From a virus (lineage: Duplodnaviria; Caudoviricetes), in IMG/VR virus record IMGVR_UViG_3300009184_000049, positions 1 through 59,503 of that record: a stretch of 59,503 nt of DNA. The stretch is one strand, 5' to 3'. The translations under genes were made by a program, and so were the position numbers. Shown here one piece after another: positions 9,383 through 39,445 of the stretch (position 1 is its first letter; each line of letters starts with the position of its first letter). The notes beneath the pieces are model-generated. The model made no database searches. It was not told the DNA's origin and saw only the letters and a list, made by a program, of their open reading frames with translations.

Positions 9383-10014
9383 TATACTTCTTCCAAGGAA
9401 ACAGAGACATTCCAATAATCAAAGTTAGTTCCTCTTTTTTCTACAGAGTATGAAAAACTTGATATAAACATTTCTACAAGTTGGTTATACTGCTGTAAAT
9501 GATCATATGGACTTTCTGTTCCTTTAAAAATTCCTTTTCTATCGTATGCAAGAAATACCCAGAAAGAACCTTTGTGACCGTCATACCATTCAAGCATATC
9601 TGCTGCTCCTGCTCCGCCATCTGTTGTATATGACTTGTAAGGAGATATTCCTGTTGTTGGATCAAATCCAGGGATGTTTGGATGCGACCTTGAAGGAAGC
9701 ATTGTCCAACTTGTACTAATCTTCATCTTATCTGCAGTATGGTATGACCTCATACGACCATTAATCATTCTTTCCCTTTTTTCAATACGCTCATCTGAAA
9801 AATCTAGGGGAGACCTATTGTCGTCTGTAAGCATTAAAAATTGATCTAACAGTTCTGGATCTGCATCATCAGCAGCATGGGTTCCTATTTCAAAACCATT
9901 TGGAACATACAAACCATTTATTAGGGTACCAGAGTTTTCAGACCAGAGCATCCCGCTAGGCCTATTGTATTTCTTTCGGCTCTGCATATAGGTGAATCTT
10001 CTATCATCTACCAT
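9382..10014 (-). CDS. distal tail (Dit-like) protein
   Basis: Directly after the TMP; ERMINGRMR and WNVSVSLEEV-type ending. Confidence 0.6.
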   Translation of the reverse strand: MVDDRRFTYMQSRKKYNRPSGMLWSENSGTLINGLYVPNGFEIGTHAADDADPELLDQFLMLTDDNRSPLDFSDERIEKRERMINGRMRSYHTADKMKISTSWTMLPSRSHPNIPGFDPTTGISPYKSYTTDGGAGAADMLEWYDGHKGSFWVFLAYDRKGIFKGTESPYDHLQQYNQLVEMFISSFSYSVEKRGTNFDYWNVSVSLEEV

Positions 10015-13000
10015 TTAATACAACCCCCCTAACTCTTCTATCGTCAACTTGTTTAATTGTTGACATTACTGCTTTTGCAATTTCATTTGGATTAGCATCT
10101 GTTTTTGCATTAACAGTTAGTGTGTATGTATTATTATACACTGCCCCGCCAGTTGGCTGTCCACTATTAATAGATTTCATAGTATCGATACCGTGAGCAT
10201 CTACGGCATATTTACTCATTATAAATTCTCCTGGAGTTAGCATTGCTGGTACAGTATCAGTTCCTCTTGCAAAACCTCCTGCTGCAAAATATTTAGGAAC
10301 TAGTCCTCCTGTAGCAAGACCACCAGTTCTTCTATCATAATAACTTCCGCCACTTGTACCTTGTTTAATTGCTGCTGCAGTTGAGGCTGCTTTTTCTATT
10401 GCTGCTTGCTGTGCAGCATATTGAATTGCTTGACCAGTGTATCTTGCAGATGAAGCAACCCCCGCTGCGCCACCCAAAGCAGCAAGCGCTGCTGGATTTT
10501 TCATTAATGTATCAGCCATTTGGTTTGCAATTTGACTTGGAGTAAATGCTGGAGCGCTTCCACTCTTAATTGAATCTAAAAGACTTGTTGTTTGATTATT
10601 AACAATTTGATTTACAGCATCAATATTTCCAACATTTCCTGTAGATGTCTTTGGTGTTGCTGCTGCTGACCTTGCTGCTGCTTCTGCTGCTGCTGCTGCT
10701 GCAAGTGCTGCAGCGGTTGCTGCATCTGCTGCTGCAATTATTGATGCATCGGTTGCAGGGTTTGTTTCTGGATTAGTTGCACCTTGAACAAATGCTCCTT
10801 GATTGTTAAATGCACCATTTTTGCCACCAGTTTCTGCTGCATATGCTGCAATTAACTTTGACTGAGTACTTATGGCAAGACCCATTGAGTCTACAAAGGA
10901 TGCACTCTTAATAAGTGCAAGATCTACCTGGTTTTTAATTGCTTCCCATGCATCCTTTGTTCTTCCAAGAACTGTAAGACCTGCTACATCTTTATCCAAC
11001 TGGATTTGTCTTAGCCTATTTAATTCTTCTGCTGGTTCAATTTTCTTTTCTTCTAAATCAAAGATCTCATCTTGTAGTTTTTTAATATCTGCTTCAAGTT
11101 CTTTTCTGGTTCTGTATGTTTTTGTAACAGGATCATAGGCTTGAACTCCAGCCAACTCATACTTTCTAGACTGCTCTACAGCATCTTTTTGTTTTGTAAG
11201 TGCATCTGCTGCTGCCTGGGATCTCATATCTTGAGCAGCCCTTGCTGCTGCTGCAATATCTCCAGATGTCAGGGCTTCTGCAAGTGTTAATTGTCCCTTT
11301 TGTTGACTAGATATTGCAGAGTTTGCTTTTTCTATTTCGTCTAAAGCGCTGATTCTTTCATCATACTTTTCATTAATCTTTTCTTCTTGATCTGCAATAG
11401 ACTTTAGTGCTGCTTCTTTGTCATCAACTTTGTACTGAATTGCTGCAATTTGATCTTGCGCTTCTCTAATGGTTTTATCATTTCCTTTAGTATCTAACTT
11501 AAATTGTATATTAAGCGCTGTTTCTTGTGTATCAAAAGATTGCATAGCATTACTATATCCTTTGTCAAACATATCTTGCATAAAGCCAATAGTATTTTTT
11601 AACTGGCTTAATCTTTCGTTAAAATCAGTTACTAGTGTATTTAGATCACCCTGTGCAGCATTAATTTGTGATCTAGTTGCACCCTTTTTAATTAGGCTAT
11701 CTACTTTTGCTTGAGCAGTGCTAATTGTATTTTCCATTAATTTAAGGTTATCATCAGAGGAAATAGCAAAAGCAGTTGTTGGATCATACTGACTTTTTAT
11801 TCTTGCTTCCTGAATTCTGTCTTTTTTGAATTGAGCAATGTCTGTTTTTACTCCCTGAATTGCTGCTGATTTTTCTTGTACTTCAGTCAAACCTTTATAT
11901 CTTTCAATTAAAGTTTTTAAAGTTTTGTCATTTACCCCGTTAGCAATTGCTTGTGCTATAGTTTTATTAGTTATTAAATCATATGCGTCTGCTACTGGTA
12001 CTCCTAAATTTGCTATTCTACTAAATGCATTACCCTGGTCAGCAAGGGCTTGAGACTCTGCTTCCATACTAGAGTTCCAATCACCCATAGCAATTGAGTT
12101 CATAGCCTCTTGAATATTCTTAGCATCATTTTTAAGAGAAATAATATTGCCTTTGTTATCAAATTTAAATAGCGAGTTTTTTCTCTTCTCATATTCCTTT
12201 GGATCCATGCCAACAATTAGTTCAATAAAATCCTGACTACCGCCTAACTTCCTAATATCGTTTTCTATACCGCTAAACACATCAATGGTCTTCTTGCCAC
12301 CAAAGAGTTTATCTAAAGCCTTACGAGAGGCACTCCAGCCCTCTGTGACCTTAATCTGGTTCATTCGTACATCTCTTAGTTTTTTTACTAGGTCATCTAG
12401 TGGAGATGCTTGCACTTTATTTCCTGTACTAGAAGCATCTGCTGTCACTGGAGCCTTTACCCCTACCGCTACTCCATCTGTAACAGCCTTATTTCCTTGG
12501 GCTTCTATATATTTTTGAACAATAAAAGATTTACTTCCAGTAACTCCTGCTCCACCCTTTGGACCAGTTTCTTTACGCCATGCTTTAAAATCTTCGCTTT
12601 CAATAATTTGTGGCTCTGGAACATTAATTAATGAAGAAATTGTTGTTGTATAAACTTTTTGCTGATCTTCTGTTAAAGTGTTAAAGTATGCTTCATCAAA
12701 TGCTGCTGTGCCTTTAATTTCTGGCATAATTTCATAAACAATTTTTGCAGTTAAATCTTTGCTTCCTTCAATAGTATCAAGAATTTTATTTAACTTTTCA
12801 TAAGCATCCTTATTTTTTGGATCTGTGTAATAACTTACCATGACATCTGATGGAATTACTGCATTAAGATTATTTAATTTAATTATGTTCTTTGCAAAAT
12901 CAAGAGCGTCTGAATCTTTTTCAAATGCCTCAACTCTTGTAACAAATTTTGTTTGAACTGTTTTATTAACTACTCCATTTGATCCAAGAATATTCTGTGC

Positions 13001-16000
13001 TGCAACTCCAATTGACTCTGATGTTGCACCACTAAACTTAGTAATAATGTTCATCATCTTTGGAGCAATATCTTTATTGTCTGTTGCCATCTGAAGAAGG
13101 CTTCTAAATACTGCAGGAGGAATATCTCCACTTGCCATTTTTGCTTGAATTAAAAACTCTTGACCACTATTAATTGCTCCAGATTTTCTTAAATCTCCTG
13201 CTTGCTGATTAACAACATCAACATAGGCTAATTGATTTGGATCATTTTTATATTTAGCGGTGGTTGCTTTCTTCATTCCATTCATCATTGATTCTTGAAG
13301 ACCTCCAGCAGAATTATATTGTGAAACAACATCTGCTTGAAGTAAACCCTGTGCGTCTGTTAAAGTATTTCTTTCTTTAATATACGTTGCTTGCATTTGT
13401 TCTGCTTCATTAATTTTTCCCTGAAGTCTTAACTGTTCAATTTTCTTTTGATAGAACATATCTAATGAATCAAGCATTTGCTTATTTTGTTCCATTGCAA
13501 TTTTTGCGTCTACCGCTGCTGCAGCGCCTAATACCGCTGCTTGTTTTACATACTTCTTTGATGTAAAGTAGCCAAATGCAGCACCAACTGCTGCACCTAT
13601 TCCTCCACCAATGGCTGCGCCAATTGGTCCACCAATAAATGTTCCTATACCTGCACCTGCTGCTGCGCCACCTAAAGCAGATGCACCAATGCCAGCAATT
13701 TGCATAGTTTTTTGTCCAGCAAGTTTTGTTATTGGGTTAGCATTATTAATATTTTTAATATTATTTTTCATATTTTTAGAATTTTCAGCAACCATTTCCA
13801 ATCGAACTTTTAAAGGTTCTTTGTCAAGCCTTTCTCCATTTGGTCCAAGCAGTGTTTCTAGTTGACCAATAACTTTAATACCTATAGACATATCTCCTGC
13901 TTGTCTAGCAGCATTCATAGCCAAACTTTTTGCCTGTGACATATCCATAGCGCCAGACATTATGGATGCTGATAATTGTCCAGTTAAATCTTTTGCTGCT
14001 TGTCCTCCCTGACCTTTAGCATTTTGTTCTGAAATTCTTGCTGTTAATGCTTTACCCTCTGCTGTTTGAGCATATGCTTCTCCATATGTTGTTTTTCCAG
14101 TTGCAGGACCAAGCATTGAAAAAGAATTTTTTCTTTTTAAATCCATCTGCTCTGATGCGGTTACTTTGCCACCAAACTTTGCAATTGAATTTATTGCAGA
14201 AGTGGTTCCTTTAAATTTTTCTGCTTGATCTAAAACTTCATTTGCTGCCTTATCAAATGCCATTCTTAGGGCAACAAAAGATCCTACAGTTGCTACAAGT
14301 CCAACTGCTAGTGCTGACATCGGGCTTTTCATCATTGGTAAAACCATTGATAGACCCATCAATGGCATCATTATTTTTTGTGAAATCTCTCCAACTTTTC
14401 CTGGTGCCATTGAGCCAATCATTGCAGCACCAGCGGCTACTCCAAGTGCTCCTGCTGCACCCATTCTTGGATTTTTTCCTGCTTCTATTCTTGCTTGTTT
14501 GTTTGTATTATATTTATCAACTTTAGCCCGAGCAAATGTTTTTAACCTTGCAGATGGTGTTCTTGCTGCTGCTTCTGCTGCTGCTTTTTCACTAATAATT
14601 GATTGTCGGTATGCAACTCTTTCTGCTAACTTGCTTCTTTTTTCTTGTGCTTCTCTTTGACGTCTAAAAGATTTTTCTTCAGCATCTATTACTTTTTGTC
14701 CATACAGGGCAGTTCTTGATGCTGCTGCTTTTGCCTGTGTTCTTGCTTCTGCTCTTTGACGTTTTTCCATTTGACGACGTAAAGATTTTGCATCTGCATC
14801 TATTGTTCCACCACCATACAGGGCAGTTCTTGATGCTGCTGCAGCCGATTGAGATGTTGTTGTAAGAGTTGTTGCATCTGGAGCGTTTGCTTTTCCAGGA
14901 ATTATAACTTTTCCAATACGCTTTGGTGCTTGAACAATACGCTTGCCTGCAGGCTCTTGTGTCATTCGTGTATCTTTTGAGCCAGCAGAAGATTTGACTC
15001 CACTTGGAAGTTTTGCTGTTTTTGGTTTTGTTATTTTACCAGTTTTAGTATCTTGCAAAACTTCATCTGGCTTTACTGCAATAGAACTGTGAAGTTTATG
15101 AAGTTGTCTCCAGTCAACCTTGGCCCCTTCTTTAAGCCTATCCAACATGGCTTGATAAACTTTTTTCTCTTTTGGATTTGTAATACCAAAACTTTCTATG
15201 ACTTTCTCTAATTTTGGAATTGATGTGTTTATTTCATTTATCATTGCTCTATGATATTCATCTGCTGTCATACTTCTTGCAATTTTTGCAGTTGCTTCAG
15301 AGAAGAACTTTTTACGACCTCCGCCAGGAAGCGGTGTATCTATTCCTAGATTAATTCTGGCTTGTTCTTCCATTGAAGGAAGATTGGCAACAAAATCTCT
15401 ACTTCCAGATGCTGTTCCAAAAACTCCTGCTGGACCAACATCGGCAAGAATATTTCCAGATAAATTTCCTTTTCCTAAATCTTTATCTGCTCTAAGTGCT
15501 GCTGCAACATTTTGTTTAATGTATTCTTCTTTTGTAAAAGTATTAGACATTTTTTCTGGATCAAATCTTGGATCAAATGGAGATTCAAGAACAACAATTC
15601 TTCTTTTTCCTTTTGTATCTGTTGGATCTAATATTGTTTTAATTGTTTGTTCTGGAGCATTAAGGCCATGGACATTTCTAGCAATAGTAGTTGCTCTCTG
15701 TTCTGCAAGGGCTTCTCTATAACTATTTGCAGGTTTTACAAAAACTCTTTTTCCATCTGCCATTTCATATACTCCACCCAAACCTTTTAGGGCAGTAAAA
15801 CTTCTTCCAGATGTTGGTGTTATCTGTTTACTATATGTCTCTGGCTTAGAACCTTTAAGTGGACTTGATTTAACATCTTTTTCTAACTGGTCTAATTGTT
15901 TATTTCTTTCACCAAATGCTGCTTCTCTAAACCCAGAAAAAATTGATGATGTAGTTCCTAGTCTATCTCCGCTTGGTCCTCTAAATGGAGAGGTCTTTAC

Positions 16001-18835
16001 TCCATCATGGTCTATAAGAACAATTCTTCTTTTATCTGGAGATTTGCCAGGCTCATATTCATAGTCTTTGATGATACCCAACCCTTTTGCTCTTTCTAAT
16101 ATTTTTCTTGTAGACTCTGGATCTTTACTACCAAAACCTTCTTGAACGCTAAAACTTGCTATATTAGAGTGTAGCGCTTGCATCAAACCAAAAGTACGGG
16201 AAGATGCAATTTTAGGATTATTTGCTGGAATAGTTTCAAAAAGTGTTTTTCTTACAAGTTCATCATTTACATGAGTTGGTTGTTTCTTTGGGTCAGTTCC
16301 ACGAATAGTTTCTAGGATTAGTGAATCAATTGTTTTTGCATCAAAGGCATTAATACCAGATGGTTTCCATTTTTCTGGGCCTCGTTTAATCCACTCTTCT
16401 TCCCATTGTTGAAATGAGATACCTGTATCCTTTGACATGGCTTGGTTGTATCCAGATTTAAAGTCATATAGTAGTCCATCTTGAACTAAAATCTTTGGAT
16501 CAATACCTTGCATTAGCAGTATTTCTTTGTAAAGTCTTAAAGTCTTAGCCTTTTGTTCTGACATTGGTGTTTTTAAAATATCATCAATGTGCATTTTGTT
16601 TTTTGCACCGACATGGAACTTTTGTGTTTCTCCAGCCATTCTTGTTGACTTTACTGGAACCTCTTGAGCATCTCCCGTTCCTTTGTTATACCCCTGCATT
16701 TTTTTGCCAGCAATCATTGCACTAATTACTGGTCTATTTGCTGGATCTTGTGCAGCCTGTGCTGGAATAACTGCTTCTCCAGGGGTAAGCATTGAAAATA
16801 CGGTGTCTTGATTTCCAGTTCCAGGAACTCTTGTTGTTCCTGTAGAATATTTAAGTTTAGGCATTCTCTTACCAGCAGGTGGTCCAGTAAATCCTGCCTG
16901 GGCTGCAATGGCTCTTCTGTATGCATTTGCCAACATATTAACTGCTGTTGTTTCAGATGTAAATGTTTGATTAAGTTTTACGTGAACTTGATCAAGTGAT
17001 GCTGCTACTGCTGAGGCTTCTAGTTGTTCTTTAGTTAGATAATTTGTTTGCTCTCCCAAAACCTTGCTTGCACTACCAGTTCTGTTGTACATAGATTTCA
17101 TTCCTGCAAACATTTTAATTATATTGGCAACAGCGTTTGCAATCAAACCAAAAGTCATAAGAAGAATTGGCCCAACTCCTGCAACTGCAACTGTAAATAT
17201 AGTTAAAAACTTTTTACTACCTTCACCAAGATTATTAAATTTATCAAGAATCTTTCCAACAAACTCAACAATAGGTGTCAGTGCTTTTAAGAACTGTTCT
17301 CCTACTGGAGCAATAGCCAACTTAAGATCTTCCATTGACTTTTTAAATTTATATGTTGTTGTGTTTTGGATCTTATCTAATTCTCGCTGTGACAAAATTG
17401 CAAGTTCTTCTGTGGTTGCCTGCGTTAGTTGAAGCACTCTATTTGCTTGTGTACCCTGTGCTGTTACGTTTTGAAATAGTGTAGATAGTCTTGAGAACTG
17501 GAACTTGCCAAATAGTTGCTCAATAGCACGAGCACGGTTAAGAGGATCAAGAGTGTCAAGTGCTTGTGCAAACCCAACTACTGTTGCTTTAATGTCTCCT
17601 TTGTTTGCTTCAACAATTCCTTTAATATTAACTCCAAGATTTCCAAGGAAATCGCTTGCTTTCTTAGATGGATTAATTAAAGATGCAAGACCAGATTTAA
17701 GTGCGTTAGCACCTTCTGATGCATTGATTCCGCCTTCTTTCATTGCTGTAAGGAAAAATGCTAAGTCTTCTACGGATCCACCAAGTTGTTTTACAACTGG
17801 CCCAGCCTTTGGAATTGCTGTTGTTAAATCTTCAATAGATACAACAGTTTGGTTTTCAACTGCGTTAAGAAAATCAATTTTTCCTGCTAATTGATCTGCA
17901 GCAACCCCAAATGCATTTGTTACTGAAATAGTTGTTTCTAGTGCTTGTGCTTGATCTACTCCGCCAAGCACTGCAAGTCTTGTTGCTTGTGAAATTTGAG
18001 CAAGTAGTTCTGCTCCTTGTTTACCCATCGCTGCGGCATCTGCAGCCATCTTCATTGTGTCTTCTATTGCAACCCCATACTTTGTATACTCTGTTGCAAG
18101 TTTTTGAACTTGTTTAACCATAGCATCTGTTTCTGCTTGTGTTGTAAACATTTCTCCATACACACGCTTAAATCTAATTGCCTGTTCTTCAAGTTTCATA
18201 AATGTTTTAGAGGCTTGAATTCCAAGCATTGCTAGTGGAACTGTAAATCCAACCATTAACTGGCGACCAGCCCACTGAGTATTCTTACCAAAGTTTAGAA
18301 GGTTAGTTGATCCTTGTTTTAATAACTGATTAAGAAGTTGCTGTCTTTGTGCAGCAATGGCTGTCTGGGTACCCAGATTTTTCATATCAAGCGTTAGCGG
18401 TCTTACTGCAATTGCTTGTAGGGCTCCATTGGCCCCTCTACCCATTTTAATATACTGGGTTTGTATATCTTTTACACGCTCTCGTGCAACCTTATTTAAT
18501 GTTTCAAACTCAGACTTAAACAATCTACCAAAAGTTTTTGTAGCAGCGCCAGTGTATCTAAAGTATTCTCTTGAACTTAACTTGTTTCTTTCTAATGCAT
18601 CAGTAAAAGACTCTGTACTTGATGTTACTGTTTGCATTGATGCTTGGAATTTTCCAGTAGCATTTATGCTGTTTATCAAGTTCTGTGCTTGATTTGCTGC
18701 CACTGCTGATGCTGCAGTGCCAGACTTGGCCATCTGTGTATGGAAGGCTGATATTTGACGTTGTAGAAGTTTTAGACTTGCTAAAGCATCAGACGTATCA
18801 ATATTTACATGAATATTGGATTCTACATCAGCCAT
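10004..18835 (-). CDS. tape measure protein, TP901-type N-terminal domain, with inserted domains
   Basis: 2943 aa, Ala-rich and helical; AMKEGGINASEGANALKS TMP motif; hydrophobic segments; C-terminal DTVPAMLTPGEF; located after the tail chaperones. Confidence 0.95.
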   Translation of the reverse strand: MADVESNIHVNIDTSDALASLKLLQRQISAFHTQMAKSGTAASAVAANQAQNLINSINATGKFQASMQTVTSSTESFTDALERNKLSSREYFRYTGAATKTFGRLFKSEFETLNKVARERVKDIQTQYIKMGRGANGALQAIAVRPLTLDMKNLGTQTAIAAQRQQLLNQLLKQGSTNLLNFGKNTQWAGRQLMVGFTVPLAMLGIQASKTFMKLEEQAIRFKRVYGEMFTTQAETDAMVKQVQKLATEYTKYGVAIEDTMKMAADAAAMGKQGAELLAQISQATRLAVLGGVDQAQALETTISVTNAFGVAADQLAGKIDFLNAVENQTVVSIEDLTTAIPKAGPVVKQLGGSVEDLAFFLTAMKEGGINASEGANALKSGLASLINPSKKASDFLGNLGVNIKGIVEANKGDIKATVVGFAQALDTLDPLNRARAIEQLFGKFQFSRLSTLFQNVTAQGTQANRVLQLTQATTEELAILSQRELDKIQNTTTYKFKKSMEDLKLAIAPVGEQFLKALTPIVEFVGKILDKFNNLGEGSKKFLTIFTVAVAGVGPILLMTFGLIANAVANIIKMFAGMKSMYNRTGSASKVLGEQTNYLTKEQLEASAVAASLDQVHVKLNQTFTSETTAVNMLANAYRRAIAAQAGFTGPPAGKRMPKLKYSTGTTRVPGTGNQDTVFSMLTPGEAVIPAQAAQDPANRPVISAMIAGKKMQGYNKGTGDAQEVPVKSTRMAGETQKFHVGAKNKMHIDDILKTPMSEQKAKTLRLYKEILLMQGIDPKILVQDGLLYDFKSGYNQAMSKDTGISFQQWEEEWIKRGPEKWKPSGINAFDAKTIDSLILETIRGTDPKKQPTHVNDELVRKTLFETIPANNPKIASSRTFGLMQALHSNIASFSVQEGFGSKDPESTRKILERAKGLGIIKDYEYEPGKSPDKRRIVLIDHDGVKTSPFRGPSGDRLGTTSSIFSGFREAAFGERNKQLDQLEKDVKSSPLKGSKPETYSKQITPTSGRSFTALKGLGGVYEMADGKRVFVKPANSYREALAEQRATTIARNVHGLNAPEQTIKTILDPTDTKGKRRIVVLESPFDPRFDPEKMSNTFTKEEYIKQNVAAALRADKDLGKGNLSGNILADVGPAGVFGTASGSRDFVANLPSMEEQARINLGIDTPLPGGGRKKFFSEATAKIARSMTADEYHRAMINEINTSIPKLEKVIESFGITNPKEKKVYQAMLDRLKEGAKVDWRQLHKLHSSIAVKPDEVLQDTKTGKITKPKTAKLPSGVKSSAGSKDTRMTQEPAGKRIVQAPKRIGKVIIPGKANAPDATTLTTTSQSAAAASRTALYGGGTIDADAKSLRRQMEKRQRAEARTQAKAAASRTALYGQKVIDAEEKSFRRQREAQEKRSKLAERVAYRQSIISEKAAAEAAARTPSARLKTFARAKVDKYNTNKQARIEAGKNPRMGAAGALGVAAGAAMIGSMAPGKVGEISQKIMMPLMGLSMVLPMMKSPMSALAVGLVATVGSFVALRMAFDKAANEVLDQAEKFKGTTSAINSIAKFGGKVTASEQMDLKRKNSFSMLGPATGKTTYGEAYAQTAEGKALTARISEQNAKGQGGQAAKDLTGQLSASIMSGAMDMSQAKSLAMNAARQAGDMSIGIKVIGQLETLLGPNGERLDKEPLKVRLEMVAENSKNMKNNIKNINNANPITKLAGQKTMQIAGIGASALGGAAAGAGIGTFIGGPIGAAIGGGIGAAVGAAFGYFTSKKYVKQAAVLGAAAAVDAKIAMEQNKQMLDSLDMFYQKKIEQLRLQGKINEAEQMQATYIKERNTLTDAQGLLQADVVSQYNSAGGLQESMMNGMKKATTAKYKNDPNQLAYVDVVNQQAGDLRKSGAINSGQEFLIQAKMASGDIPPAVFRSLLQMATDNKDIAPKMMNIITKFSGATSESIGVAAQNILGSNGVVNKTVQTKFVTRVEAFEKDSDALDFAKNIIKLNNLNAVIPSDVMVSYYTDPKNKDAYEKLNKILDTIEGSKDLTAKIVYEIMPEIKGTAAFDEAYFNTLTEDQQKVYTTTISSLINVPEPQIIESEDFKAWRKETGPKGGAGVTGSKSFIVQKYIEAQGNKAVTDGVAVGVKAPVTADASSTGNKVQASPLDDLVKKLRDVRMNQIKVTEGWSASRKALDKLFGGKKTIDVFSGIENDIRKLGGSQDFIELIVGMDPKEYEKRKNSLFKFDNKGNIISLKNDAKNIQEAMNSIAMGDWNSSMEAESQALADQGNAFSRIANLGVPVADAYDLITNKTIAQAIANGVNDKTLKTLIERYKGLTEVQEKSAAIQGVKTDIAQFKKDRIQEARIKSQYDPTTAFAISSDDNLKLMENTISTAQAKVDSLIKKGATRSQINAAQGDLNTLVTDFNERLSQLKNTIGFMQDMFDKGYSNAMQSFDTQETALNIQFKLDTKGNDKTIREAQDQIAAIQYKVDDKEAALKSIADQEEKINEKYDERISALDEIEKANSAISSQQKGQLTLAEALTSGDIAAAARAAQDMRSQAAADALTKQKDAVEQSRKYELAGVQAYDPVTKTYRTRKELEADIKKLQDEIFDLEEKKIEPAEELNRLRQIQLDKDVAGLTVLGRTKDAWEAIKNQVDLALIKSASFVDSMGLAISTQSKLIAAYAAETGGKNGAFNNQGAFVQGATNPETNPATDASIIAAADAATAAALAAAAAAEAAARSAAATPKTSTGNVGNIDAVNQIVNNQTTSLLDSIKSGSAPAFTPSQIANQMADTLMKNPAALAALGGAAGVASSARYTGQAIQYAAQQAAIEKAASTAAAIKQGTSGGSYYDRRTGGLATGGLVPKYFAAGGFARGTDTVPAMLTPGEFIMSKYAVDAHGIDTMKSINSGQPTGGAVYNNTYTLTVNAKTDANPNEIAKAVMSTIKQVDDRRVRGVVLNGR

Positions 18836-18853: not shown

Positions 18854-19180
18854 TTAATTATTTGCAAGGCTGCCGAGTAGTGATGCGTCAGAAAGTTTAA
18901 TTCCTGATGCCTCTTCGACAATCTTGTATACTGTTGGAAGATCTAGATTTTCTTCTAGGGCTTCCTTATCTTCTGCCAATTCTGGCTTGTATTGTTTCAT
19001 TGCAATTTGAACACAGTCCATTAGCAAATCCATGGACTTTTCATTGTCTTCTGCTACCTTTGCAATGTCCTCAAACTTCTTCATAAACGGACGAAGTAGA
19101 GAAATCTTAAGTGGTCTAACCTTGATCTTAGTACCATCAATTAGTGTTACTGTTTTTTCTTCTGTTGTGGCAGTTGCCAT
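18854..19180 (-). CDS. tail assembly chaperone (gpG-like)
   Basis: Between major tail and TMP; AAGGAGG SD; paralogue of the N-terminus of the next ORF. Confidence 0.75.
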   Translation of the reverse strand: MATATTEEKTVTLIDGTKIKVRPLKISLLRPFMKKFEDIAKVAEDNEKSMDLLMDCVQIAMKQYKPELAEDKEALEENLDLPTVYKIVEEASGIKLSDASLLGSLANN

Positions 19181-19235: not shown

Positions 19236-19916
19236 CTAATCATATGTTTCATAATCAAGCCCCATGCCTATTCCAAAACCAGCCTTTTCAGCATTCATGC
19301 CCTGCAAAGCCAGAATATCATTGCCGTCAGTTACCGCGCCTTTACTAAAGACTCTGGCCTTAAGGTCTTCCCACTCATTACCGCTACCAGAATTTTTATC
19401 TAAATCTACACCTTGCATAGCAGCAGTAAATTTTTTATTAGTATAATCTAGTTCTCTTTTTATTTTTAATGTGGCTGTTAATTCTTGCATTGACATTGAT
19501 GACTCTAACTGTTCATAGTCTTTCCATATGCCAATTAAAAAAACCTCTGATTCTAATTTTGCTAAATCTAATGTTTCCCAAGAAGATCCACTATCTACCG
19601 CTTGATCTTTTACAGTGTCTTCTGATTTTTCATTAATTTTAATTCCTGCTGCAACATCAATTACTTCATAAATAGTTGGCAAATCAAGATTATCTTCTAG
19701 GTCTTCTATTGTTTTGATTGATGGGCAATACTGTTGCATTGCAATTAAAGCACACTGGACTAATACAGATATAGACTCATCATCTGTTTTTGCTTGTTTT
19801 ATTGTTTCAAAAGTTTCTAAAAATTCTCTTAAGTATTTAATTTTTAGTGGGGAGGCAATGACTACCCTATCATCCACTAATGATATTTTTTTAGTCTCAT
19901 ATATTTTTGTTGCCAT
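19236..19916 (-). CDS. tail assembly chaperone, gpGT-like (G-like domain fused to T-like extension); likely start MATKIY
   Basis: N-terminal ~100 aa align with 18854-19180 (PLKI..LR.F, IAM.QY.P, LE.NLDLPT.Y); TGGTATACT-N6-ATG upstream. Confidence 0.75.
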   Translation of the reverse strand: MATKIYETKKISLVDDRVVIASPLKIKYLREFLETFETIKQAKTDDESISVLVQCALIAMQQYCPSIKTIEDLEDNLDLPTIYEVIDVAAGIKINEKSEDTVKDQAVDSGSSWETLDLAKLESEVFLIGIWKDYEQLESSMSMQELTATLKIKRELDYTNKKFTAAMQGVDLDKNSGSGNEWEDLKARVFSKGAVTDGNDILALQGMNAEKAGFGIGMGLDYETYD

Positions 19917-19930
19917 TATATAAGTATACC

Positions 19931-19964
19931 AAAAAGAAAGGCTCAACCCCGAAGGATTGAGCCT
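19931..19964 (-). terminator. rho-independent terminator after the major tail gene
   Basis: AGGCTCAA/TTGAGCCT stem followed by a T-run on the minus strand. Confidence 0.8.
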
Positions 19965-28970: not shown

Positions 28971-31900
28971 CTAGGCAGGGTCAATGACTAGTTGGTTCCA
29001 GTTAACATCCGCATATGCCGTGTATTTATAGTTCCCAAAGCGTAAAACACTGCTGTCTTCTACAACTATCTTGTTTGTTCCAGTATAACTTTTGTAAACT
29101 TCTGATGGATTAACTCCATAATAACTTGTTTCTGACAAAACCAAGACTTTGTTCCAATTAAATGATCCAATATTCCAAAACTTCCAGTCTAATTCTCTAG
29201 AATTAAGGACCTTAACTCTAAACCAAGGCCTTTCGGAAACATTCTGAACCTCCTGTAGGTTTGTTGACTGATAGAAAGATATGTTATTAAATAATAATGG
29301 CCCAGTAAGTCTAATAGCCCCCTCAAAATATGAAAAATCTAAACTGTTTGAAAAACTAATGCCAAGGAATCCCCAGTCTTGCAAAGTTATAACTGGCTCT
29401 TTTACAATTCTTCCATTCCAGTAAAATCCAATTCCATTTTGAACTAATCCAGTTTTTGTATCAATTGAATAAATTTTTGCTCTTCTTCCACTTGGATCAC
29501 ATGCAACCATATAAAACTTTATATAAGAACCTTTGCTTTCTACTTCAAAAATTTCTGTTGGTGCATATGGAAAATATTCTCCATCAAACCTAACTGCAAG
29601 TTGCATAGCAATAACCTTAAAGCCATCTGCCCTATTTGTATTAATAGGAATCATAAGCCCCCTATTTACAAGTGGATCATAGGTTCCTTTTAATTGAATA
29701 CCGCTTGTTTTTGTCAAATACAAATATGGAGATGATGCATTATATATTGAAAAAGGATTATTCTTTTTAAAATTATAATAAATTCCAGACTTTGTATAAG
29801 GGTAAATAGGAGTTCCAAATCTTGTTCCAATAGGGCTTGCGTCCGCTTCATTTAGCGCTTGAGAAGCGTAAGACATATTTTTTATACTAACATTGTTAAC
29901 TGATGAATTTTTTACGTTAATGTCTATATGAGTAACTATTGACAAATCATTAAAGTCAACACCTGAAGGTGGATAGATTATCATGTTGTCTACTACCTCA
30001 TACTTTGTTGTCATCCAATCAGATCCTGGAATCAAGACACCATTTCTTTCTGGCTTTTCTATCTTATCAAAATACTCAAAAGTTGCATTTGCTCCAAGTT
30101 TAGTATACTGAAATGTAACATATGTTTTTACTAGTGCTCCTTCTGTATCATACTTATAACTTTTTGCTATTTTGTTTTTTAAATCTTCATAATCATTATA
30201 TCCAGTAAATAAATAATTATCTAACGAATCATAGTTTCTTTGAACTGGAATGCTGTAATCATTAGCAAGTTCTGCGTATGTCCATTCAACTGGATCTGTC
30301 TCTATTGCAAGAGTTTTTGAAGGTATTGGATAATTAAAATTAAACTGTATAAAATCAAGATCAAAGTATTGATCACCTCTTTTATCAAAAACAGATTCTG
30401 CAAAATAGGTAAGTGGTAAATTATCCTCCCAATATCCATTTGAAGATACTGCAAGTGTATATTTTTCAAATAAAATATCTGGCACTAAAGTATAACTGGC
30501 TGTGTGCTCAATTAAATAATCTTCTTCCATTAATACAACTTTTCCACCATCAAGTGCTCCAGGAGAAACGTCCGTAAGGCCTCCGTATGGGCTTAGAGAT
30601 ACAGTATCAATCCCACCATCAACATCTACTATTTCATCACTTTGATAAACATCAAACAAATTTTCATTAAGTTTTGGAATGCCAAGTTCGTTGAACAAAT
30701 TTTTTATTTTTTGAAAATTATACTTTGTTGCAAATCCAACTTTATAAATTTTTCCTGTAAATGTTGATGTATTTATTAATTTGTTGTTTTTATCTCCTCC
30801 AACATATAACCTTAGATCTGATAACGATCCAAAAAAACTAGAGACAGGATTCCCAAATATTTCTATAAACCTAGGAATATTTACACCCACTTCAATAAAT
30901 TCGTTTGGGTTTAAATTCTGAGAACTATAGATAACCTCTGTTTTACCATTTGCGTAAATACTGTAAACTATTTTCTTATTAGAAATTTCTATTTTAAAAT
31001 AGTCTAGGGTGTTTTCTTTTTCAATTTTAAAAAGTATTTGTGGCGTTGTTGCATTACCTTTTATTTTAAAACATCCATAGAATGCTGATATTGGAGTATT
31101 TAAAATATCAAAGTTTTCAAAAAATAAATATCCCCTAACACTGTCCCATGATGATGAGGGCATAAATGTAAAATAATCTTTTTGATCATATAAAAAGTTT
31201 TCTGTATTTGATACTAGGTTGGCAGTTTTGTTTTCATTAAATAAATCAGACTCTGTCTTTGATGATAAAACTATTTTTGGAAGTGGGTGAGATATTACAG
31301 AAAGTGCTTTATTTGTAGTAGATAAATTATCATTAAATCCTTGATTCCAAGACCCAGTTTTAGGATAAGAATAGTTGGCTTTATAGTTTGCAAAAGAATA
31401 GTCAACTGTAACAGAAGTTCCGCTATATGATGTATTGATATTTTCTGGTATTTCAACACCCTGACCAAAAACAAATCTTCTTTTTGCAACATCGCTTGGG
31501 ACCAGGTATGGGTAAATTCCAACGCAGTCTATATCTATTGGGGAAATATCATCATATGCATAGAACCCTATCCAATCTTGGTTTTTGCCTGCTACAAACT
31601 CTAAAGGGAAGGCAGCCAAGTCTTGATCATGTTGAATTGAGACAACCTCTGTTCCATTAATTAACAAAGATGCAATATTTTTTCCAACCTTGAGATGCAC
31701 AAGCATTGGCCTTGTCCACTCTCCAATATAATTTGTTTTATATTCATTACCAATTTTTAATCCAATTGATGGTCCATCTACGTATATTCCATCGGTTGAT
31801 GCAATAGGGCCAATAATTCTTTTTCTGTCAGTGGTATAAGAATTTATCCTAAGCCAAGTTTCAAGTGTATATTGTTTAAATTGACCTGATTTGTTTAGCA

Positions 31901-32720
31901 TTCCAACACCAGGAACTATTAATGAGGGATTAGTCCCATTTGAAAAAAGAGTTGTGTGCCCAGCAGTTCCATAAACAAGAGGAATGCCAGAATTTTTTGC
32001 TTTTAACATATTGTCAGATACAAGATAGTAGGCATCCAGTTCTTGAAGTCCATAACACTTAGCAACAACACCTTTTTGTGGTGCTATAGAAATTGTTGAG
32101 GGGATATCTATTACAGTTGTTCCAAGTGAAGTTGATGCAAACTCTTCTGACCACTGTCCTAAAGTTATTCCGTTAACTCTAAATACATGTTTTGCTGCAT
32201 TATCTCCTACAAAATTAATTTTAAAAACAATTCTAATTGCCACATCTTCAGGTGGTGTGTCAAATGTTTCTGATATAAAGATCCACCCGTTATTAATTAC
32301 TGTATCAAAATCTTTAAGATGTCTTATATCACTACCGCTGTTTTCATCTCTATATTCATAACCAATTGAGAATCCTGATATATAAGAACTTTCAGAATAA
32401 AAATACCCACCTACTGAAAAAGTTCTAAGATATGTATTTAAACTGCTCAAGTTAATAATTTCAGGACTAACGGCAGTTATGGACGCTTGCTTATCTGGTA
32501 CAGAACTTGCAAGAATTTTATAAACAGAACTATTTTGAAAAGGCTCTCCAACTGATTTTGGATATGCTGATGGAGTACCGCCACTTACCTTCCAATTTAA
32601 TAAATTTCTTTGTGACTCTGAAATTAAAGAAATATAGTCTGCATTATCATCAAGAGCCCATAGCCCAGTCGGATGCTCAGCAAATACTTTTTCTGCGTAT
32701 AGGTTTGATGAAGTAGACAT
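28971..32720 (-). CDS. large virion protein with LamG/concanavalin-like domains
   Basis: AEHPTGLWALDD start; YTLETWLR...LLING and LYVGG...FTGKI LamG-like patterns. Confidence 0.6.
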   Translation of the reverse strand: MSTSSNLYAEKVFAEHPTGLWALDDNADYISLISESQRNLLNWKVSGGTPSAYPKSVGEPFQNSSVYKILASSVPDKQASITAVSPEIINLSSLNTYLRTFSVGGYFYSESSYISGFSIGYEYRDENSGSDIRHLKDFDTVINNGWIFISETFDTPPEDVAIRIVFKINFVGDNAAKHVFRVNGITLGQWSEEFASTSLGTTVIDIPSTISIAPQKGVVAKCYGLQELDAYYLVSDNMLKAKNSGIPLVYGTAGHTTLFSNGTNPSLIVPGVGMLNKSGQFKQYTLETWLRINSYTTDRKRIIGPIASTDGIYVDGPSIGLKIGNEYKTNYIGEWTRPMLVHLKVGKNIASLLINGTEVVSIQHDQDLAAFPLEFVAGKNQDWIGFYAYDDISPIDIDCVGIYPYLVPSDVAKRRFVFGQGVEIPENINTSYSGTSVTVDYSFANYKANYSYPKTGSWNQGFNDNLSTTNKALSVISHPLPKIVLSSKTESDLFNENKTANLVSNTENFLYDQKDYFTFMPSSSWDSVRGYLFFENFDILNTPISAFYGCFKIKGNATTPQILFKIEKENTLDYFKIEISNKKIVYSIYANGKTEVIYSSQNLNPNEFIEVGVNIPRFIEIFGNPVSSFFGSLSDLRLYVGGDKNNKLINTSTFTGKIYKVGFATKYNFQKIKNLFNELGIPKLNENLFDVYQSDEIVDVDGGIDTVSLSPYGGLTDVSPGALDGGKVVLMEEDYLIEHTASYTLVPDILFEKYTLAVSSNGYWEDNLPLTYFAESVFDKRGDQYFDLDFIQFNFNYPIPSKTLAIETDPVEWTYAELANDYSIPVQRNYDSLDNYLFTGYNDYEDLKNKIAKSYKYDTEGALVKTYVTFQYTKLGANATFEYFDKIEKPERNGVLIPGSDWMTTKYEVVDNMIIYPPSGVDFNDLSIVTHIDINVKNSSVNNVSIKNMSYASQALNEADASPIGTRFGTPIYPYTKSGIYYNFKKNNPFSIYNASSPYLYLTKTSGIQLKGTYDPLVNRGLMIPINTNRADGFKVIAMQLAVRFDGEYFPYAPTEIFEVESKGSYIKFYMVACDPSGRRAKIYSIDTKTGLVQNGIGFYWNGRIVKEPVITLQDWGFLGISFSNSLDFSYFEGAIRLTGPLLFNNISFYQSTNLQEVQNVSERPWFRVKVLNSRELDWKFWNIGSFNWNKVLVLSETSYYGVNPSEVYKSYTGTNKIVVEDSSVLRFGNYKYTAYADVNWNQLVIDPA

Positions 32721-32745: not shown

Positions 32746-34779
32746 CTACTTGTTTATTTTAATTTCACAGTAATCAGTAGTGCAGTACGCTTCACCTTGA
32801 GCCTCAAGATTATCTACACCATCGTAAATTGCAGCAAAATCAATGTGCTTTAATTTACCGATATAAGACTCATATTGCTCTTCAGTAATTTCTGTGTATG
32901 GCTGCTGTGGATAAACTGTATTTCCCATTGGTAGGAATGAAACAGCCTTTAATTGTCCCTCGTACATATTAAGTGCTGGAACAATGTGCTTTGACTCTGT
33001 TTCCTTATCAAATGATAATGTTACAGAAACTCCATTGTCAGACCAATACTTCTGAGCAGTTGCAGCAAGTGCAATCTTTTCAAATAATGTTACATCCTTT
33101 TCAGATCTTGGATGACCTGATTTTATTGGGAAGTAGATTACTGATGTATTTGCTGATACTACGTCGTCTTCAATTGTGTACCCTGCTGCTTTGAACAAAT
33201 GCATCATTGGATCTGTGTTTCCAAATCGAACTGCACGAAGAAAGAACTCTCCTCCAGGACCCCAGTGAACTCCAGGAGTTGCACCAGAAAGAATTGAAAC
33301 AGAACCTGATGGCTTAACAGTTGTTACACGAATTGATTCACGAACACATAGCCATTCTGAATACTGGTGATCGTAATGGCGAATCTTGTTATATCCTTCA
33401 TCCATCCACTCACGAACAATTGGTAAACCCTTTTGATCTGCAAATGATGCAATGCCAGTAAGAGATGTACCGATACGACGATTTCGTTGCATGATACCGT
33501 TTGTTTGTGGCCAGTGTGTTGGAACAAGTGTTACGGTCTTTCCATATAGGTATGCAAACTTCAGGGTACGCAAGAAGTCTTCCTTAGATTCATGACGATT
33601 CAAGTGCACTTCTACAAGTGTACACAATTCGTATGATTCTAATGGCTGCTCCGCACAGGGATTAAAGCCCATCACACGATAGTCTTTTCCGTCTGGCGCA
33701 TCCTTTAGTCTGCCATAATTACGAGCAACATCAAGCCAGATAAAACCTGGTTCTCCGTTTTCCGTAATTAAATCTACATAATCTTCGTATTTTGTTCCTA
33801 CTTCTGCTGAAATAGAATTATTAGACATCCAGGCCCATCCTGGATTTTCTGGATCAAACGAGTTACGCTCTGGGAATAGTTCTGAATTCTTTAGATTCAT
33901 AAATGTTTCATCCCCTGCATTACCCAAAGCAAGGGTTGCTGAGCGACGGACATTACCTGATACCACGCAGGTACCAATAAGGTTTACAAGGTCTACGATA
34001 GCACGAGAGTCTAGTGTTTCACCTGCTCTGGAGCCGATTACACGGTCTATATGGTCATGCAACTTGATAAGAGGTGCAGGGCCTGATGCAACGCCTCCAA
34101 AGCCCTTTATAGGGGCTCCAAGAGGTCTGATTAAATCATAGTTAAACTTCTGAATACTCTGGTTTGCTCTAAGGTAAGAATTGATTAGAAGTCTAACTGA
34201 CTCTACCCATCCTTCACGAGTGTCTGGAATTTCAAAGATCTCTTCTGGCTCTGTTGGGGCATAGATTGAGAAATGCTTATCCTGTCCCACTGTATCAAAC
34301 CCTACACCGATTCCAAGCATAAGAGCATCCATAACCCAAGCAAACAGGGCTCCTGGATCGTTCTTATCAAGGTCTTTTGTAGAAACCATTGCACAATTTT
34401 GTAGTGCTGCTGAGTTCTTCTTCTCCATAGTCATAGGAGTTCCGAATGCCCACATACCTCGTCCTGGGGGTGTCCACTTTAATTCAAACATTCTTTGGAA
34501 TGCTTCTTGTGCAGATTTTTGTGCCTTGTAGTCATTCCAAGGCAAACGGTTTTCTTTAGCATGATTCTTTTGAACTGAATACATACCCTCGATTACACGA
34601 CGACAAACCTCATGCCATCTTTCTTTAGTTCCATCTTCCTTCATTCGAGAATATGTACGAATAAAAGTAATTTCTCCAAGTGAATTTTCTGCTGCATCCT
34701 TAAACCCAAATGGGTTTTCTTGGCTTTTGAACTTTTCTACAAAGTCCTCTGGAAGTTTAAAACTAAAAAAATCTGACAT
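32746..34779 (-). CDS. nrdJ: class II (B12-dependent, monomeric-type) ribonucleotide reductase
   Basis: PPGRG, QNCA, NPCAEQ, ELCTL, TTVKPSGS and C-terminal CTTDYC; no small subunit nearby. Confidence 0.93.
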   Translation of the reverse strand: MSDFFSFKLPEDFVEKFKSQENPFGFKDAAENSLGEITFIRTYSRMKEDGTKERWHEVCRRVIEGMYSVQKNHAKENRLPWNDYKAQKSAQEAFQRMFELKWTPPGRGMWAFGTPMTMEKKNSAALQNCAMVSTKDLDKNDPGALFAWVMDALMLGIGVGFDTVGQDKHFSIYAPTEPEEIFEIPDTREGWVESVRLLINSYLRANQSIQKFNYDLIRPLGAPIKGFGGVASGPAPLIKLHDHIDRVIGSRAGETLDSRAIVDLVNLIGTCVVSGNVRRSATLALGNAGDETFMNLKNSELFPERNSFDPENPGWAWMSNNSISAEVGTKYEDYVDLITENGEPGFIWLDVARNYGRLKDAPDGKDYRVMGFNPCAEQPLESYELCTLVEVHLNRHESKEDFLRTLKFAYLYGKTVTLVPTHWPQTNGIMQRNRRIGTSLTGIASFADQKGLPIVREWMDEGYNKIRHYDHQYSEWLCVRESIRVTTVKPSGSVSILSGATPGVHWGPGGEFFLRAVRFGNTDPMMHLFKAAGYTIEDDVVSANTSVIYFPIKSGHPRSEKDVTLFEKIALAATAQKYWSDNGVSVTLSFDKETESKHIVPALNMYEGQLKAVSFLPMGNTVYPQQPYTEITEEQYESYIGKLKHIDFAAIYDGVDNLEAQGEAYCTTDYCEIKINK

Positions 34780-37891: not shown

Positions 37892-39445
37892 TTATGCTGA
37901 CAAGTCGCCGAAGACTAGCCATCCGCTTGCTGTTTTCATTGCTGTTGCAACTGAGTATGTTGTTCTGAACTTAAGTCCTGGGGTTCCAACGACTGAGTTA
38001 GTACTAGCAAAGTATGCTCCAGTTCCTGATTCCTGGAAGAAATCAATTGACTGACCAGTTGAGTATCCTGTTGCTGGAAGAGTAATTACTACTGCTCCAG
38101 TTAGCGGAATAAACTGATCTGCCCGTGATGCTGCGATTGTCTGTGCTCCTGCTGCAAGTGCAGTTGGGATATTAGTAATCGAAGGAACGCCAGCCTTTGT
38201 CTGTGTACCGTCTGTAAATGCTACACCTGAAGCAGAGGCTGTAATTAATCCTGTTGCTGTAATTGCTGGTGCTGTTACTGTTCCAGTAAATGTTGGATCT
38301 GCCTTTGGTGCTTTTAGACCAAGGTTAGTTGTAAGTGTTGTAGAGAAGTTAGCATCATTTCCAAGAGCAGTTGCTAATTCATTAAGTGTATCAAGTGCTG
38401 CTGGTGCTGAGGCTACAAGGTTTGAAACTGCTGTTCCTACGAATGCTGTAGTTGCAACTTGTGTAGTTGACGTTCCTGCTGCTGCTGTTGGAGCAGTTGG
38501 TGTACCAGTAAGTGCTGGTGAAGCAAGTGGTGCCTTTAGATCAAGTGCTGTCTGTGTAGCAGTTGAGATTGGCTTTGCTGAGTCTGCTGTATTGTCAACA
38601 GATCCTAAACCAACCATTGACTTTGTGATACCTGATACTGTTCCAGTAAATGTAGGTCCTGCAAGGTTAGCCTTAAGTGCCAATCCTGAGTTAACAGTTG
38701 CAGTTAATGCAAGTGCTGATGTATCTGCAATACCATGAACATTTGTAGTATCAACATCATGTGCTGAAATCTTTGTGTCTGCTGCAGATGCTGCTGCTGC
38801 AATTGCTTCAGATTTTGCTGTTGCAATTGCTGCTGCTTGAGCAGTAGAAACTGGTTTATTTGCATCTTCTACATTGTCTACTACCCCAAGACCAATTGAA
38901 GCCTTTGTGACGGATGCAACCTTTGTAGTTGCATCTGCTGCTGCTGTTGAAATTGCAGCATTTGCCTTTGTAGTTGCATCTGTTGCTGCTGTTGAAATTG
39001 CAGCATTTGCCTTTGTAGTTGCATCTGTTGCTGCTGCTGCGATTGCGGCTGCTTGTGCAGCATTTGCCTTTGTAGTTGCATCTGTTGCTGCTGTTGAAAT
39101 TGCAGCATTTGCCTTTGTAGTTGCATCTGTTGCTGCTGTTGAAATTGCAGCATTTACGTGTGAAAGGTATGCAAGAGATGAAGTATCTGAAATTCCATGA
39201 ACACCTGTTGTTGCTGAATTATGTGTAGAAAGTATTGATGCTGCACCTAAAGTTAAAGTGTTTGTGGTTGATGTTAAATCTGCTGAAGTAGTATAGTAAA
39301 CTAATGAGTTCCAAGCAGTTTGGCCATCACCAATTTTAGACTTGCCAGTGTTTGTTTCGAGGCCAATCTCTCCTGCTGCTAAAGTAGGATTTGCTGCAGT
39401 CCATTGTGTAGAAGTTCCTCTACGCTGTTGCATTCTTGTTGTCAT
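37892..39445 (-). CDS. tail fibre-like protein with Mtd-type N-terminus
   Basis: RMQQRRGT..QW..ANP.LA.GEIG.E...KIGDG; Ala-rich repeats; APAALDTLNELA motif. Confidence 0.75.
   Translation of the reverse strand: MTTRMQQRRGTSTQWTAANPTLAAGEIGLETNTGKSKIGDGQTAWNSLVYYTTSADLTSTTNTLTLGAASILSTHNSATTGVHGISDTSSLAYLSHVNAAISTAATDATTKANAAISTAATDATTKANAAQAAAIAAAATDATTKANAAISTAATDATTKANAAISTAAADATTKVASVTKASIGLGVVDNVEDANKPVSTAQAAAIATAKSEAIAAAASAADTKISAHDVDTTNVHGIADTSALALTATVNSGLALKANLAGPTFTGTVSGITKSMVGLGSVDNTADSAKPISTATQTALDLKAPLASPALTGTPTAPTAAAGTSTTQVATTAFVGTAVSNLVASAPAALDTLNELATALGNDANFSTTLTTNLGLKAPKADPTFTGTVTAPAITATGLITASASGVAFTDGTQTKAGVPSITNIPTALAAGAQTIAASRADQFIPLTGAVVITLPATGYSTGQSIDFFQESGTGAYFASTNSVVGTPGLKFRTTYSVATAMKTASGWLVFGDLSA
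38920..39155 (-). repeat. near-perfect ~42-bp repeats encoding AAISTAATDATTKAN-type units
   Basis: Direct repeats of gcagcatttgcctttgtagttgcatctgttgctgct. Confidence 0.85.

Follow-up and report, generated by a model that had tools for sequence, protein, structure and literature searches.

The DNA analysed here, referred to as the window, is the whole 59,503-base stretch of an IMG/VR virus record (IMGVR_UViG_3300009184_000049), with an estimated completeness of 54% and a G+C content of 36.8%. Its minus strand carries a single open frame of 2943 codons (10004..18835) whose product, as judged from sequence matches and gene order, is a tape measure protein (TMP), and the subject of this work is a domain of that protein, residues 976–1255, which is predicted to adopt a protein-kinase-like (PKL) fold. 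PF10145 (PhageMin_Tail) matches residues 247–443 of the open reading frame (ORF) with an E-value of 6.4e-27, and eleven PHROG families annotated as TMP match residues 8–709 (best E 1.9e-99), in agreement with a first-pass annotation of the window, which had placed a kinase-like domain inside a TMP. The genes leading into the TMP gene encode a portal, a protease, a major capsid protein, a major tail protein and two ORFs in the chaperone position, and a 1441-residue minor tail protein follows it; Streptomyces phage BoomerJR has a matching gene order (portal, protease, capsid, major tail, chaperones, TMP, minor tail), with its genes 59 and 60 ('tail assembly chaperone') sitting where the two chaperone-position ORFs sit in the window. 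The N-terminal PF10145 match, the place between chaperones and minor tail genes, and the great length are those of a TMP.

A predicted kinase-like domain with conserved motif residues

All five motifs that the first-pass annotation had read as kinase-like are present in the order it gave, on the minus strand and in one open frame. The domain does lie in the span proposed there (15100–15830, residues 1002–1246), although its extent is slightly larger (Table 1). An AlphaFold2 model built from a 53-row alignment (A1) has a mean predicted local distance difference test score (pLDDT) of 93.0 and a predicted template modelling score (pTM) of 0.91. The N-lobe of the model starts with three strands; the Gly-rich loop lies between strands 1 and 2, and K1034 sits in strand 3 (model residues 55–60). 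A long helix bearing E1045 (64–81) and two more strands follow. In the catalytic region, a helix (127–140) leads at once into D1117-K-D1119-L-x3-N1124, two short strands, and D1132-V-G, and five helices after the DxG motif form the C-lobe. The predicted structure therefore shows the features of the PKL superfamily, with two lobes, a strand-3 Lys and a helix-C Glu, and each motif falls on its expected element, D-x4-N coming right after helix E and DxG after that.

A VIA-align fold search against 48,161 representative solved chains returned 18 chains at Z ≥ 8, and all 50 listed rows are PKL folds; a best Z of 7–8 is common for models without a true match. The highest score belongs to CotH (5jda/5jd9), with a Z of 12.1 in both the first search and a second look (rmsd 4.1–4.2, 220–221 residues aligned). 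It is followed, with second-look values in parentheses, by PI4KIIalpha at 10.3 (10.6 for PI4KIIbeta), CtkA at 9.8 (11.4), MavQ at 9.8 (not listed), Fam20C at 9.7 (9.8), HipA/HipT at 8.9 (9.1), and actin-fragmin kinase at 8.6 (not listed), while LepB, not listed in the first search, reached 9.3 in the second look. Because the match list is uniform and the top Z lies well above 7–8, the model supports assignment of residues 976–1255 to the PKL fold, with CotH as the structurally nearest protein. Structure prediction, which the first-pass annotation had put forward as the check on its proposal of a HipA/PI3-PI4K/CotH-type domain, gave a kinase-like fold, and those classes are the closest solved structures.

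An exhaustive HMMER search with residues 701–1300 against 1.84 billion cluster representatives identified 170 proteins at E ≤ 1e-3, 133 of them at E ≤ 1e-30, and nearly all are 2000–4400 residues long. Among the 150 proteins listed, 146 match residues 976–1265 and four match the upstream block only. In a family alignment of 130 sequences, comprising the window and 129 cluster representatives with almost full coverage of the domain, K1034, E1045, N1124, D1132, G1021, Q1108, P1061 and G1010 are invariant; D1119 (one Val) and S1012 are each kept in 129 of the 130, G1134 in 127, and D1117 (six Asn) and R1115 in 124. Position 1121, the site of the His of the 'DxH' motif, is Gly in the window, as had been pointed out at first pass, and its three commonest residues in the family are Ser (53 of 130), Gln (28) and Gly (23). 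An independent set was taken from DNA: when IMG/VR was scanned with two peptide patterns, 193 of the 226 candidate stretches were confirmed. The 80 loci kept gave 61 distinct domain sequences, and all nine checked positions, among them the set K1034, E1045, D1119, N1124 and D1132, are conserved in 61 of 61. This conservation in 130 and 61 sequences makes the motif set far more than a chance resemblance, and the K/E/D/N/D residues, whose loss in homologues had been named as grounds for rejecting the kinase-like assignment, are retained. By sequence, the domain keeps the full catalytic residue set. The ratio of nonsynonymous to synonymous substitution rates (dN/dS) against the two closest relatives is 0.12 for the kinase domain, 0.09–0.15 for the TMP core, and 0.21–0.45 for the linker after the kinase; the kinase domain is under purifying selection.

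No sequence library recognises the domain. Pfam (E ≤ 10), PHROGs, NCBIfam and PADLOC give no meaningful match to residues 971–1300, and the PDB gives no match at E ≤ 10 by single sequence and noise only by the 53-row profile, with a best E of 0.012 to a leucine-rich repeat. The CotH model PF08757 matches neither the window at E ≤ 10 nor any of the 53 family members; the HipA_2 model PF20613 does not match the window at E ≤ 10, PF07804 gives no match in the whole-library scan, and a sub-threshold HipA_2 match (E 0.014) occurs in one of the 53 members. The PI3/PI4-kinase family PF00454 likewise has no Pfam match in the window at E ≤ 10 or in the 53 members at E ≤ 1. The nearest named clusters in a language-model look-alike search, to be taken as leads only, are LepB_N, HipA_2 and PI3_PI4_kinase. 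As no sequence model detects the domain and it lacks the His of DxHxxN, we class it as a new sequence family within the PKL fold. A full-text literature search, with most subscription journals and supplements outside its scope, found no published description of a kinase-like domain in a TMP. The new elements are thus a kinase-fold family and a new carrier, the TMP, the nearest published idea being that of 'polyvalent proteins' (Iyer et al. 2017, PMC5512222).

Table 1. Positions of the kinase-like domain, its motifs and other features of the tape measure gene region in the window
Feature	Residues	Window position	Strand	Basis or remark
Tape measure protein gene	2943 aa	10004..18835	-	PF10145, PHROG TMP families, synteny with BoomerJR
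Protein-kinase-like domain (predicted)	976-1255	15071..15910	-	AlphaFold2 model, fold matches, family alignment
Gly-rich loop GLGGVY	1018-1023	15767..15784	-	Between model strands 1 and 2; G1021 130/130, Y1023 126/130
VFVKP, strand 3 with K1034	1031-1035	15731..15745	-	Model residues 55-60; K 130/130
ALAEQRA, helix C with E1045	1042-1048	15692..15712	-	Model helix 64-81; E 130/130
Catalytic-loop motif DKDLGKGN (D1117, D1119, N1124)	1117-1124	15464..15487	-	Directly after model helix 127-140
ADVG, DFG-equivalent (D1132, G1134)	1131-1134	15434..15445	-	D 130/130, G 127/130
N-terminal TMP core (PF10145 at 247-443)	1-695	16751..18835	-	Sole part homologous to TMPs of cultured phages
Hydrophobic segment in N-terminal core	541-570	17126-17215	-	Hydropathy scan
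First DTVxxMLTPGE motif; conserved core ends, variable slot starts	677-691	16763..16807	-	BoomerJR homology ends here; identity falls after residue 700
Block 1, separate cassette	~725-940	16016..16663	-	Homologue alignment; occurs with or without the kinase
Basic low-complexity linker	1256-1450	14486..15070	-	Composition; two AAASRTALYG copies
Second hydrophobic segment	1504-1527	14255..14326	-	Hydropathy scan
Glycine zipper	1720-1760	13556..13678	-	PF13488, E 2e-5
Second DTVxxMLTPGE motif, near C terminus	2860-2874	10214..10258	-	Weak match to BoomerJR C-terminal region
Two putative tail assembly chaperone ORFs		18854-19180, 19236-19946	-	Both match phrog_10504; assigned by position

The domain as an optional cassette of a mosaic protein

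The TMP of BoomerJR, the best match, is 30% identical over residues 55–696, and its homology ends at residue 696, just after the motif DTVFSMLTPGEAVIP; beyond this point no significant BoomerJR homology is detected, except for a weak match of the C-terminal LTPGE region. The motif DTV-x-x-MLTPGE occurs twice in the protein, as if a complete short TMP had gained about 2200 residues. To survey the slot independently of the kinase, we used the best 80 of at least 598 IMG/VR relatives of the core (65–93% identity), of which four have a truncated core and nine end too early to judge, leaving 67 that are assessable. The kinase is present in 38 of these, behind block 1 in 19 and behind another insert in 19, and is absent from the other 29, across at least 1100 further residues in 26 and across the rest of the ORF in three. 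The kinase domain is an optional accessory cassette in the slot that opens right behind the conserved N-terminal core of the TMP. In three kinase-less groups the glycine zipper lies about 670–790 residues after the core, compared with about 1025 in the window, and among 18 representatives of kinase-less groups the slot contains no Pfam domain except this zipper in three.

The distance from core to kinase was compared in 213 kinase-bearing TMPs, a sample gathered by kinase search and hence biased for this purpose: the kinase follows the core directly in 68, lies as in the window in 68, falls into two longer classes in 36 and 37, and lies elsewhere in four, its start having a median relative position of 0.33 of the protein length. 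In P0112 and P0148 the kinase stands unusually far downstream. Some TMPs of the family (P0148, P0089, P0033 and P0252) carry cell-wall modules in the C-terminal half (Peptidase_M23, CHAP with LysM, OmpA; residues 2198–2869). A second search, against 90%-identity clusters, gave 342 proteins at E ≤ 1e-10; among the 120 homologous clusters listed, 111 contain PF10145, and the source names include 'TP901 family phage tail tape measure protein', 'hypothetical protein' and 'LysM repeat protein', none of them naming a kinase. PF10145 is also present in all 14 family members scanned. The 11 shorter homologues all lie on contigs of 956–23,015 bases and are therefore read as fragments, with no stand-alone form evident; the domain is confined to giant TMP-like proteins.

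Identity was also compared segment by segment with the related IMG/VR TMPs L002, L004, L006 and L007. The N-terminal core is nearly equally similar to L004, L006 and L002 (0.89, 0.90 and 0.90), whereas block 1 is 0.30 and 0.15 identical to L004 and L006 and 0.83 to L002, the kinase 0.67 and 0.66 to L004 and L006 and 0.88 to L002, and residues 1500–2943 are 0.73 and 0.71 identical to L004 and L006 and 0.49 to L002 (about 0.25 over residues 1600–2100). Segment identities to the same relative thus differ strongly, indicating that the TMP is a recombinant mosaic.

Block 1, neighbouring genes and host

The second globular block that had been noticed at about 15900–16650 proves to be real, being a separate, independently occurring module, block 1. 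It has about 64 homologues among the collected proteins, is found without the kinase in four representatives (P0144, P0146, P0147 and P0152, the four with a match to the upstream block only), and is replaced by unrelated sequence in L006. In 32 aligned rows, H741, G743, L788, N797, G805, W815, K822, D837, D858, G900 and A916 are invariant, and the block carries an invariant H-V-G. Residues 701–1000 have no meaningful match in Pfam, PHROGs, NCBIfam or PADLOC, a five-row profile of the block has none in the PDB, and tblastn with the block finds none in 50,697 deposited phage genome records. Its language-model look-alikes all score below 0.9, with a weak lead to ADP-ribosyltransferase clusters (ART-PolyVal, in 20% of the members of one cluster), which the PF18760 model did not bear out.

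In the linker after the kinase, the AAASRTALYG repeats lie at residues 1335–1341 and 1373–1379 (14699–14833, minus strand), each followed by a similar basic, Lys/Arg-rich stretch; they are conceivable phospho-acceptor sites, yet poorly conserved. Directly upstream of the portal gene is an ORF of 1249 residues (28971–32720, minus strand) that has no Pfam, PHROG or NCBIfam match and in which comparison with the kinase profile by hhalign found no second kinase; large proteins at the pre-portal position in related actinophages carry effector-type domains. A B12-dependent class II ribonucleotide reductase gene (32746–34779, minus strand; RNR_Alpha E 1e-31, phrog_367 E 1e-141) lies beside the structural genes, and two adjacent tail-fibre-like genes (37892–39445 and 39504–40805, minus strand) share a common N-terminal module, collagen-like or fibre repeats, and many PHROG tail-fibre matches.

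Among cultured relatives, the kinase region has no tblastn match in the same 50,697 phage genome records, and the A1 kinase profile detects nothing in the BoomerJR genome at E ≤ 1, with four of four positive controls matched. Streptomyces phages come closest in both the TMP core and the capsid: the core matches 290 records, of which 127 are from Streptomyces phages and 92 from Gordonia phages, and the major capsid protein matches 232, including 127 Streptomyces phages at about 44% identity; BoomerJR itself belongs to the Stanwilliamsviridae and has a genome of about 131 kb. In bacterial assemblies, where occurrence was gauged from the two-pattern scan, 185,579 species genomes yielded two matching loci, in metagenome-assembled genomes labelled 'uncultured Bifidobacterium sp.' and 'uncultured Acidimicrobiaceae bacterium', both Actinomycetota; a genome scan with alignment A2 matched 132 stretches, none of which was confirmed. 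From the distant phage relatives and the bin labels, themselves weak evidence, the host is probably a low-G+C actinobacterium.

A search for similar folds among viral models in BFVD returned 10 rows at E ≤ 1e-3, the best matches being domains within large proteins whose annotations read portal, ADP-ribosyltransferase or head morphogenesis. The matched proteins come from uncultured phages, Mycobacterium phage Onyinye, Gordonia phage GodonK, and haloarchaeal tailed viruses. As these predicted matches fall in large virion-type proteins, kinase-fold cargo may be a wider theme of actinophage virion proteins.

Possible functions of the domain

We hold, with a confidence that stands about halfway, that the domain is an active phosphotransferase that is carried in the virion, expelled with the TMP, and acts at the host membrane; the first-pass proposal of an injected effector serving host takeover or anti-defence is, by analogy, plausible. 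A TMP leaves the tail at infection and helps the genome across the envelope. Being part of the TMP, a catalytically competent phosphotransferase of the PKL fold at residues 976–1255 would be built into every virion and would leave the tail together with that protein as infection begins. The kinase module is flanked by low-complexity linkers and lies between the two hydrophobic segments of the protein, residues 541–570 and 1504–1527, and tethered between them it would come to lie on the inner side of the host membrane, facing the cytoplasm. Once folded in this place, it would draw on host ATP-Mg and transfer phosphate to a host target, which might be a protein or a lipid of the membrane or envelope. 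All this would precede the expression of phage genes and could aid genome entry, takeover or defence evasion. In a study of lambda injection, a TurboID fusion to the inner-membrane protein ManZ robustly labelled a single phage protein, the TMP gpH, and TMPs are probably bound by the SNIPE nuclease through its cytoplasmic domain (PMC13190303); the labelling and the binding suggest that an ejected TMP is partly exposed on the cytoplasmic side. The parts of this scheme that we infer are catalysis, packaging that still permits folding, delivery to an ATP-containing compartment, and the target.

Several points weigh against the delivered kinase. Foldseek gives no row at E ≤ 1e-3 against the PDB, although the rows listed are almost all protein or lipid kinases (AAK1, HipA, CtkA, JNK, PI3Kgamma, COQ8A, Fam20C, RIOK1 and PI4KIIIbeta). 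The absence of the domain from 29 of 67 close relatives shows that it is dispensable for tail function, and the catalytic-loop residue that is Lys in eukaryotic protein kinases (ePKs) and His in HipA and PI3K is Ser, Gln or Gly here. The lumen of a siphovirus tail tube is about 4 nm wide, into which three folded copies of about 31 kDa should not fit, so that storage in an unfolded state and refolding after ejection would be needed. In TP901-1, as described in PMC5099701, the tail tube is filled by the TMP, whose C terminus sits at the tip complex and whose N terminus points to the connector; with this orientation a kinase in the N-terminal third would be at the head-facing end and would leave last. 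The same study doubts that hydrophobic regions of the TMP insert into the membrane, which weakens the argument from the topology of the hydrophobic segments.

If the kinase instead acted late in the producing cell, before or during tail assembly, on the TMP itself (for example, on Ser/Thr/Tyr-bearing linker repeats), on chaperones or on a host protein, ATP would certainly be available, no folded domain would have to be fitted into the tube, and the linker with its two AAASRTALYG repeats, right after the domain, would be at hand. CotH, the closest structure, offers a precedent, being a morphogenetic kinase that phosphorylates repeat-rich structural proteins during shell assembly (PMC7821199). 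We nevertheless consider such a role unlikely: a late-acting enzyme has no obvious need to be fused inside a TMP, the domain is never found outside giant TMP-like proteins, the 29 kinase-less relatives assemble their TMPs without it, and the linker repeats are poorly conserved (dN/dS 0.21–0.45). Many PKL domains are pseudokinases, and a module without catalysis (a pseudokinase, a nucleotide-binding plug or a scaffold) could serve in length, oligomerisation, membrane docking or as a folding ratchet that pulls the TMP out. The commonness of PKL pseudokinases, the optional presence of the domain, and the loss of the canonical Lys/His position of the catalytic loop would all suit it; a scaffold, however, has no use for a Lys, Glu, Asp, Asn and Asp that stay unchanged throughout 130 and 61 sequences, and with D1119 lost in just one of 130 we judge this quite unlikely.

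PKL folds can also support reactions of the AMPylation or glutamylation type, as in SelO and SidJ, and such chemistry, or nucleotidyl or phosphoryl transfer to a small molecule, would be consistent with a sequence that assigns the domain to no kinase family. The motif set and spacing (Lys, Glu, D-x4-N, DxG) are, on the other hand, those of canonical phosphotransfer, and the nearest structures are all kinases, which makes other chemistry distinctly improbable. That the motifs look kinase-like by chance, in a low-complexity structural protein without any kinase-like domain, has a practically negligible probability; although neither the family libraries nor sequence searches of the PDB pick up a kinase, this idea is refuted by the high-confidence model, the kinase-only fold list, and the invariant motif residues. 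A long shot within the delivered-kinase reading, drawn by analogy with PI4KII, MavQ and LepB, which are among the nearest folds, is that the TMP delivers a membrane-tethered lipid kinase whose substrate would be a lipid of the host membrane where the genome enters. Actinomycetota are unusual among bacteria in having phosphatidylinositol in their membranes, and phosphatidylinositol or its mannosides would be the most attractive target; local remodelling of the bilayer could open or stabilise the DNA channel or blind membrane-bound defences. If true, no earlier case is known of a phage tail injecting an enzyme that modifies lipids.

Among known systems, CotH, the Ser/Thr kinase of the Bacillus cereus spore coat (5jd9/5jda, PF08757), is the best structural match. 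It has an atypical PKL fold with catalytic and metal-binding Asp residues, and the substitutions D228Q and D251A inactivate it (PMC7821199). Like the TMP domain, CotH works inside a protein assembly rather than in signalling, but the two have no sequence relationship (8–9% identity), the two Asp are 23 residues apart in CotH and 13 in the TMP domain, and the contexts, spore coat and phage TMP, differ. PI4KIIalpha/beta, MavQ and the N-terminal domain of LepB, the next-best folds after CotH (Z 10.6–9.3), are membrane-associated enzymes, as a TMP-tethered domain would be; unlike PI4K, the TMP domain has no PF00454 match and lacks the His of DRHxxN, and a lipid substrate is conjectural. HipA/HipT and CtkA (Z about 9 and 11.4) are likewise compact bacterial PKL kinases, and the TMP domain differs from HipA in lacking the His of DxHxxN, an antitoxin context, and a PF20613 match.

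The protein kinase of phage T7 resembles the TMP domain in the concept of early action on host proteins, but it is an early gene product and not part of the virion. The 'polyvalent proteins' of phages and conjugative elements, as described in PMC5512222, are large, multidomain, travel with DNA, and may contain kinases, so that they share with the TMP domain a kinase in a large protein that enters with the DNA and acts early on host proteins. By the definition given in that source, however, polyvalent-protein kinases have lost the whole C-terminal subdomain, whereas the model of the TMP domain keeps a helical C-lobe of five helices; they are found in phages and prophages of Verrucomicrobia, Chlamydiae and Bacteroidetes, and 'tape measure' occurs 0 times in the article (PMC5512222). 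Peptidoglycan hydrolase and binding modules embedded in TMPs provide a precedent for enzymes inside such proteins, but their action is on the cell wall and independent of ATP, and they are placed in the C-terminal half, in contrast to a kinase in the N-terminal third.

TMPs are usually seen as rulers and channel formers that carry at most cell-wall hydrolases. The finding defines a new kinase-fold family that no library recognises, and the cassette slot of the TMP can be mined for further cargo. An apparently intact kinase-fold site in the TMPs of hundreds of uncultured phages implies either a pre-made effector that acts in the cytoplasm or phosphorylation in tail assembly, and either, if true, would change the view of the first seconds of siphovirus infection.

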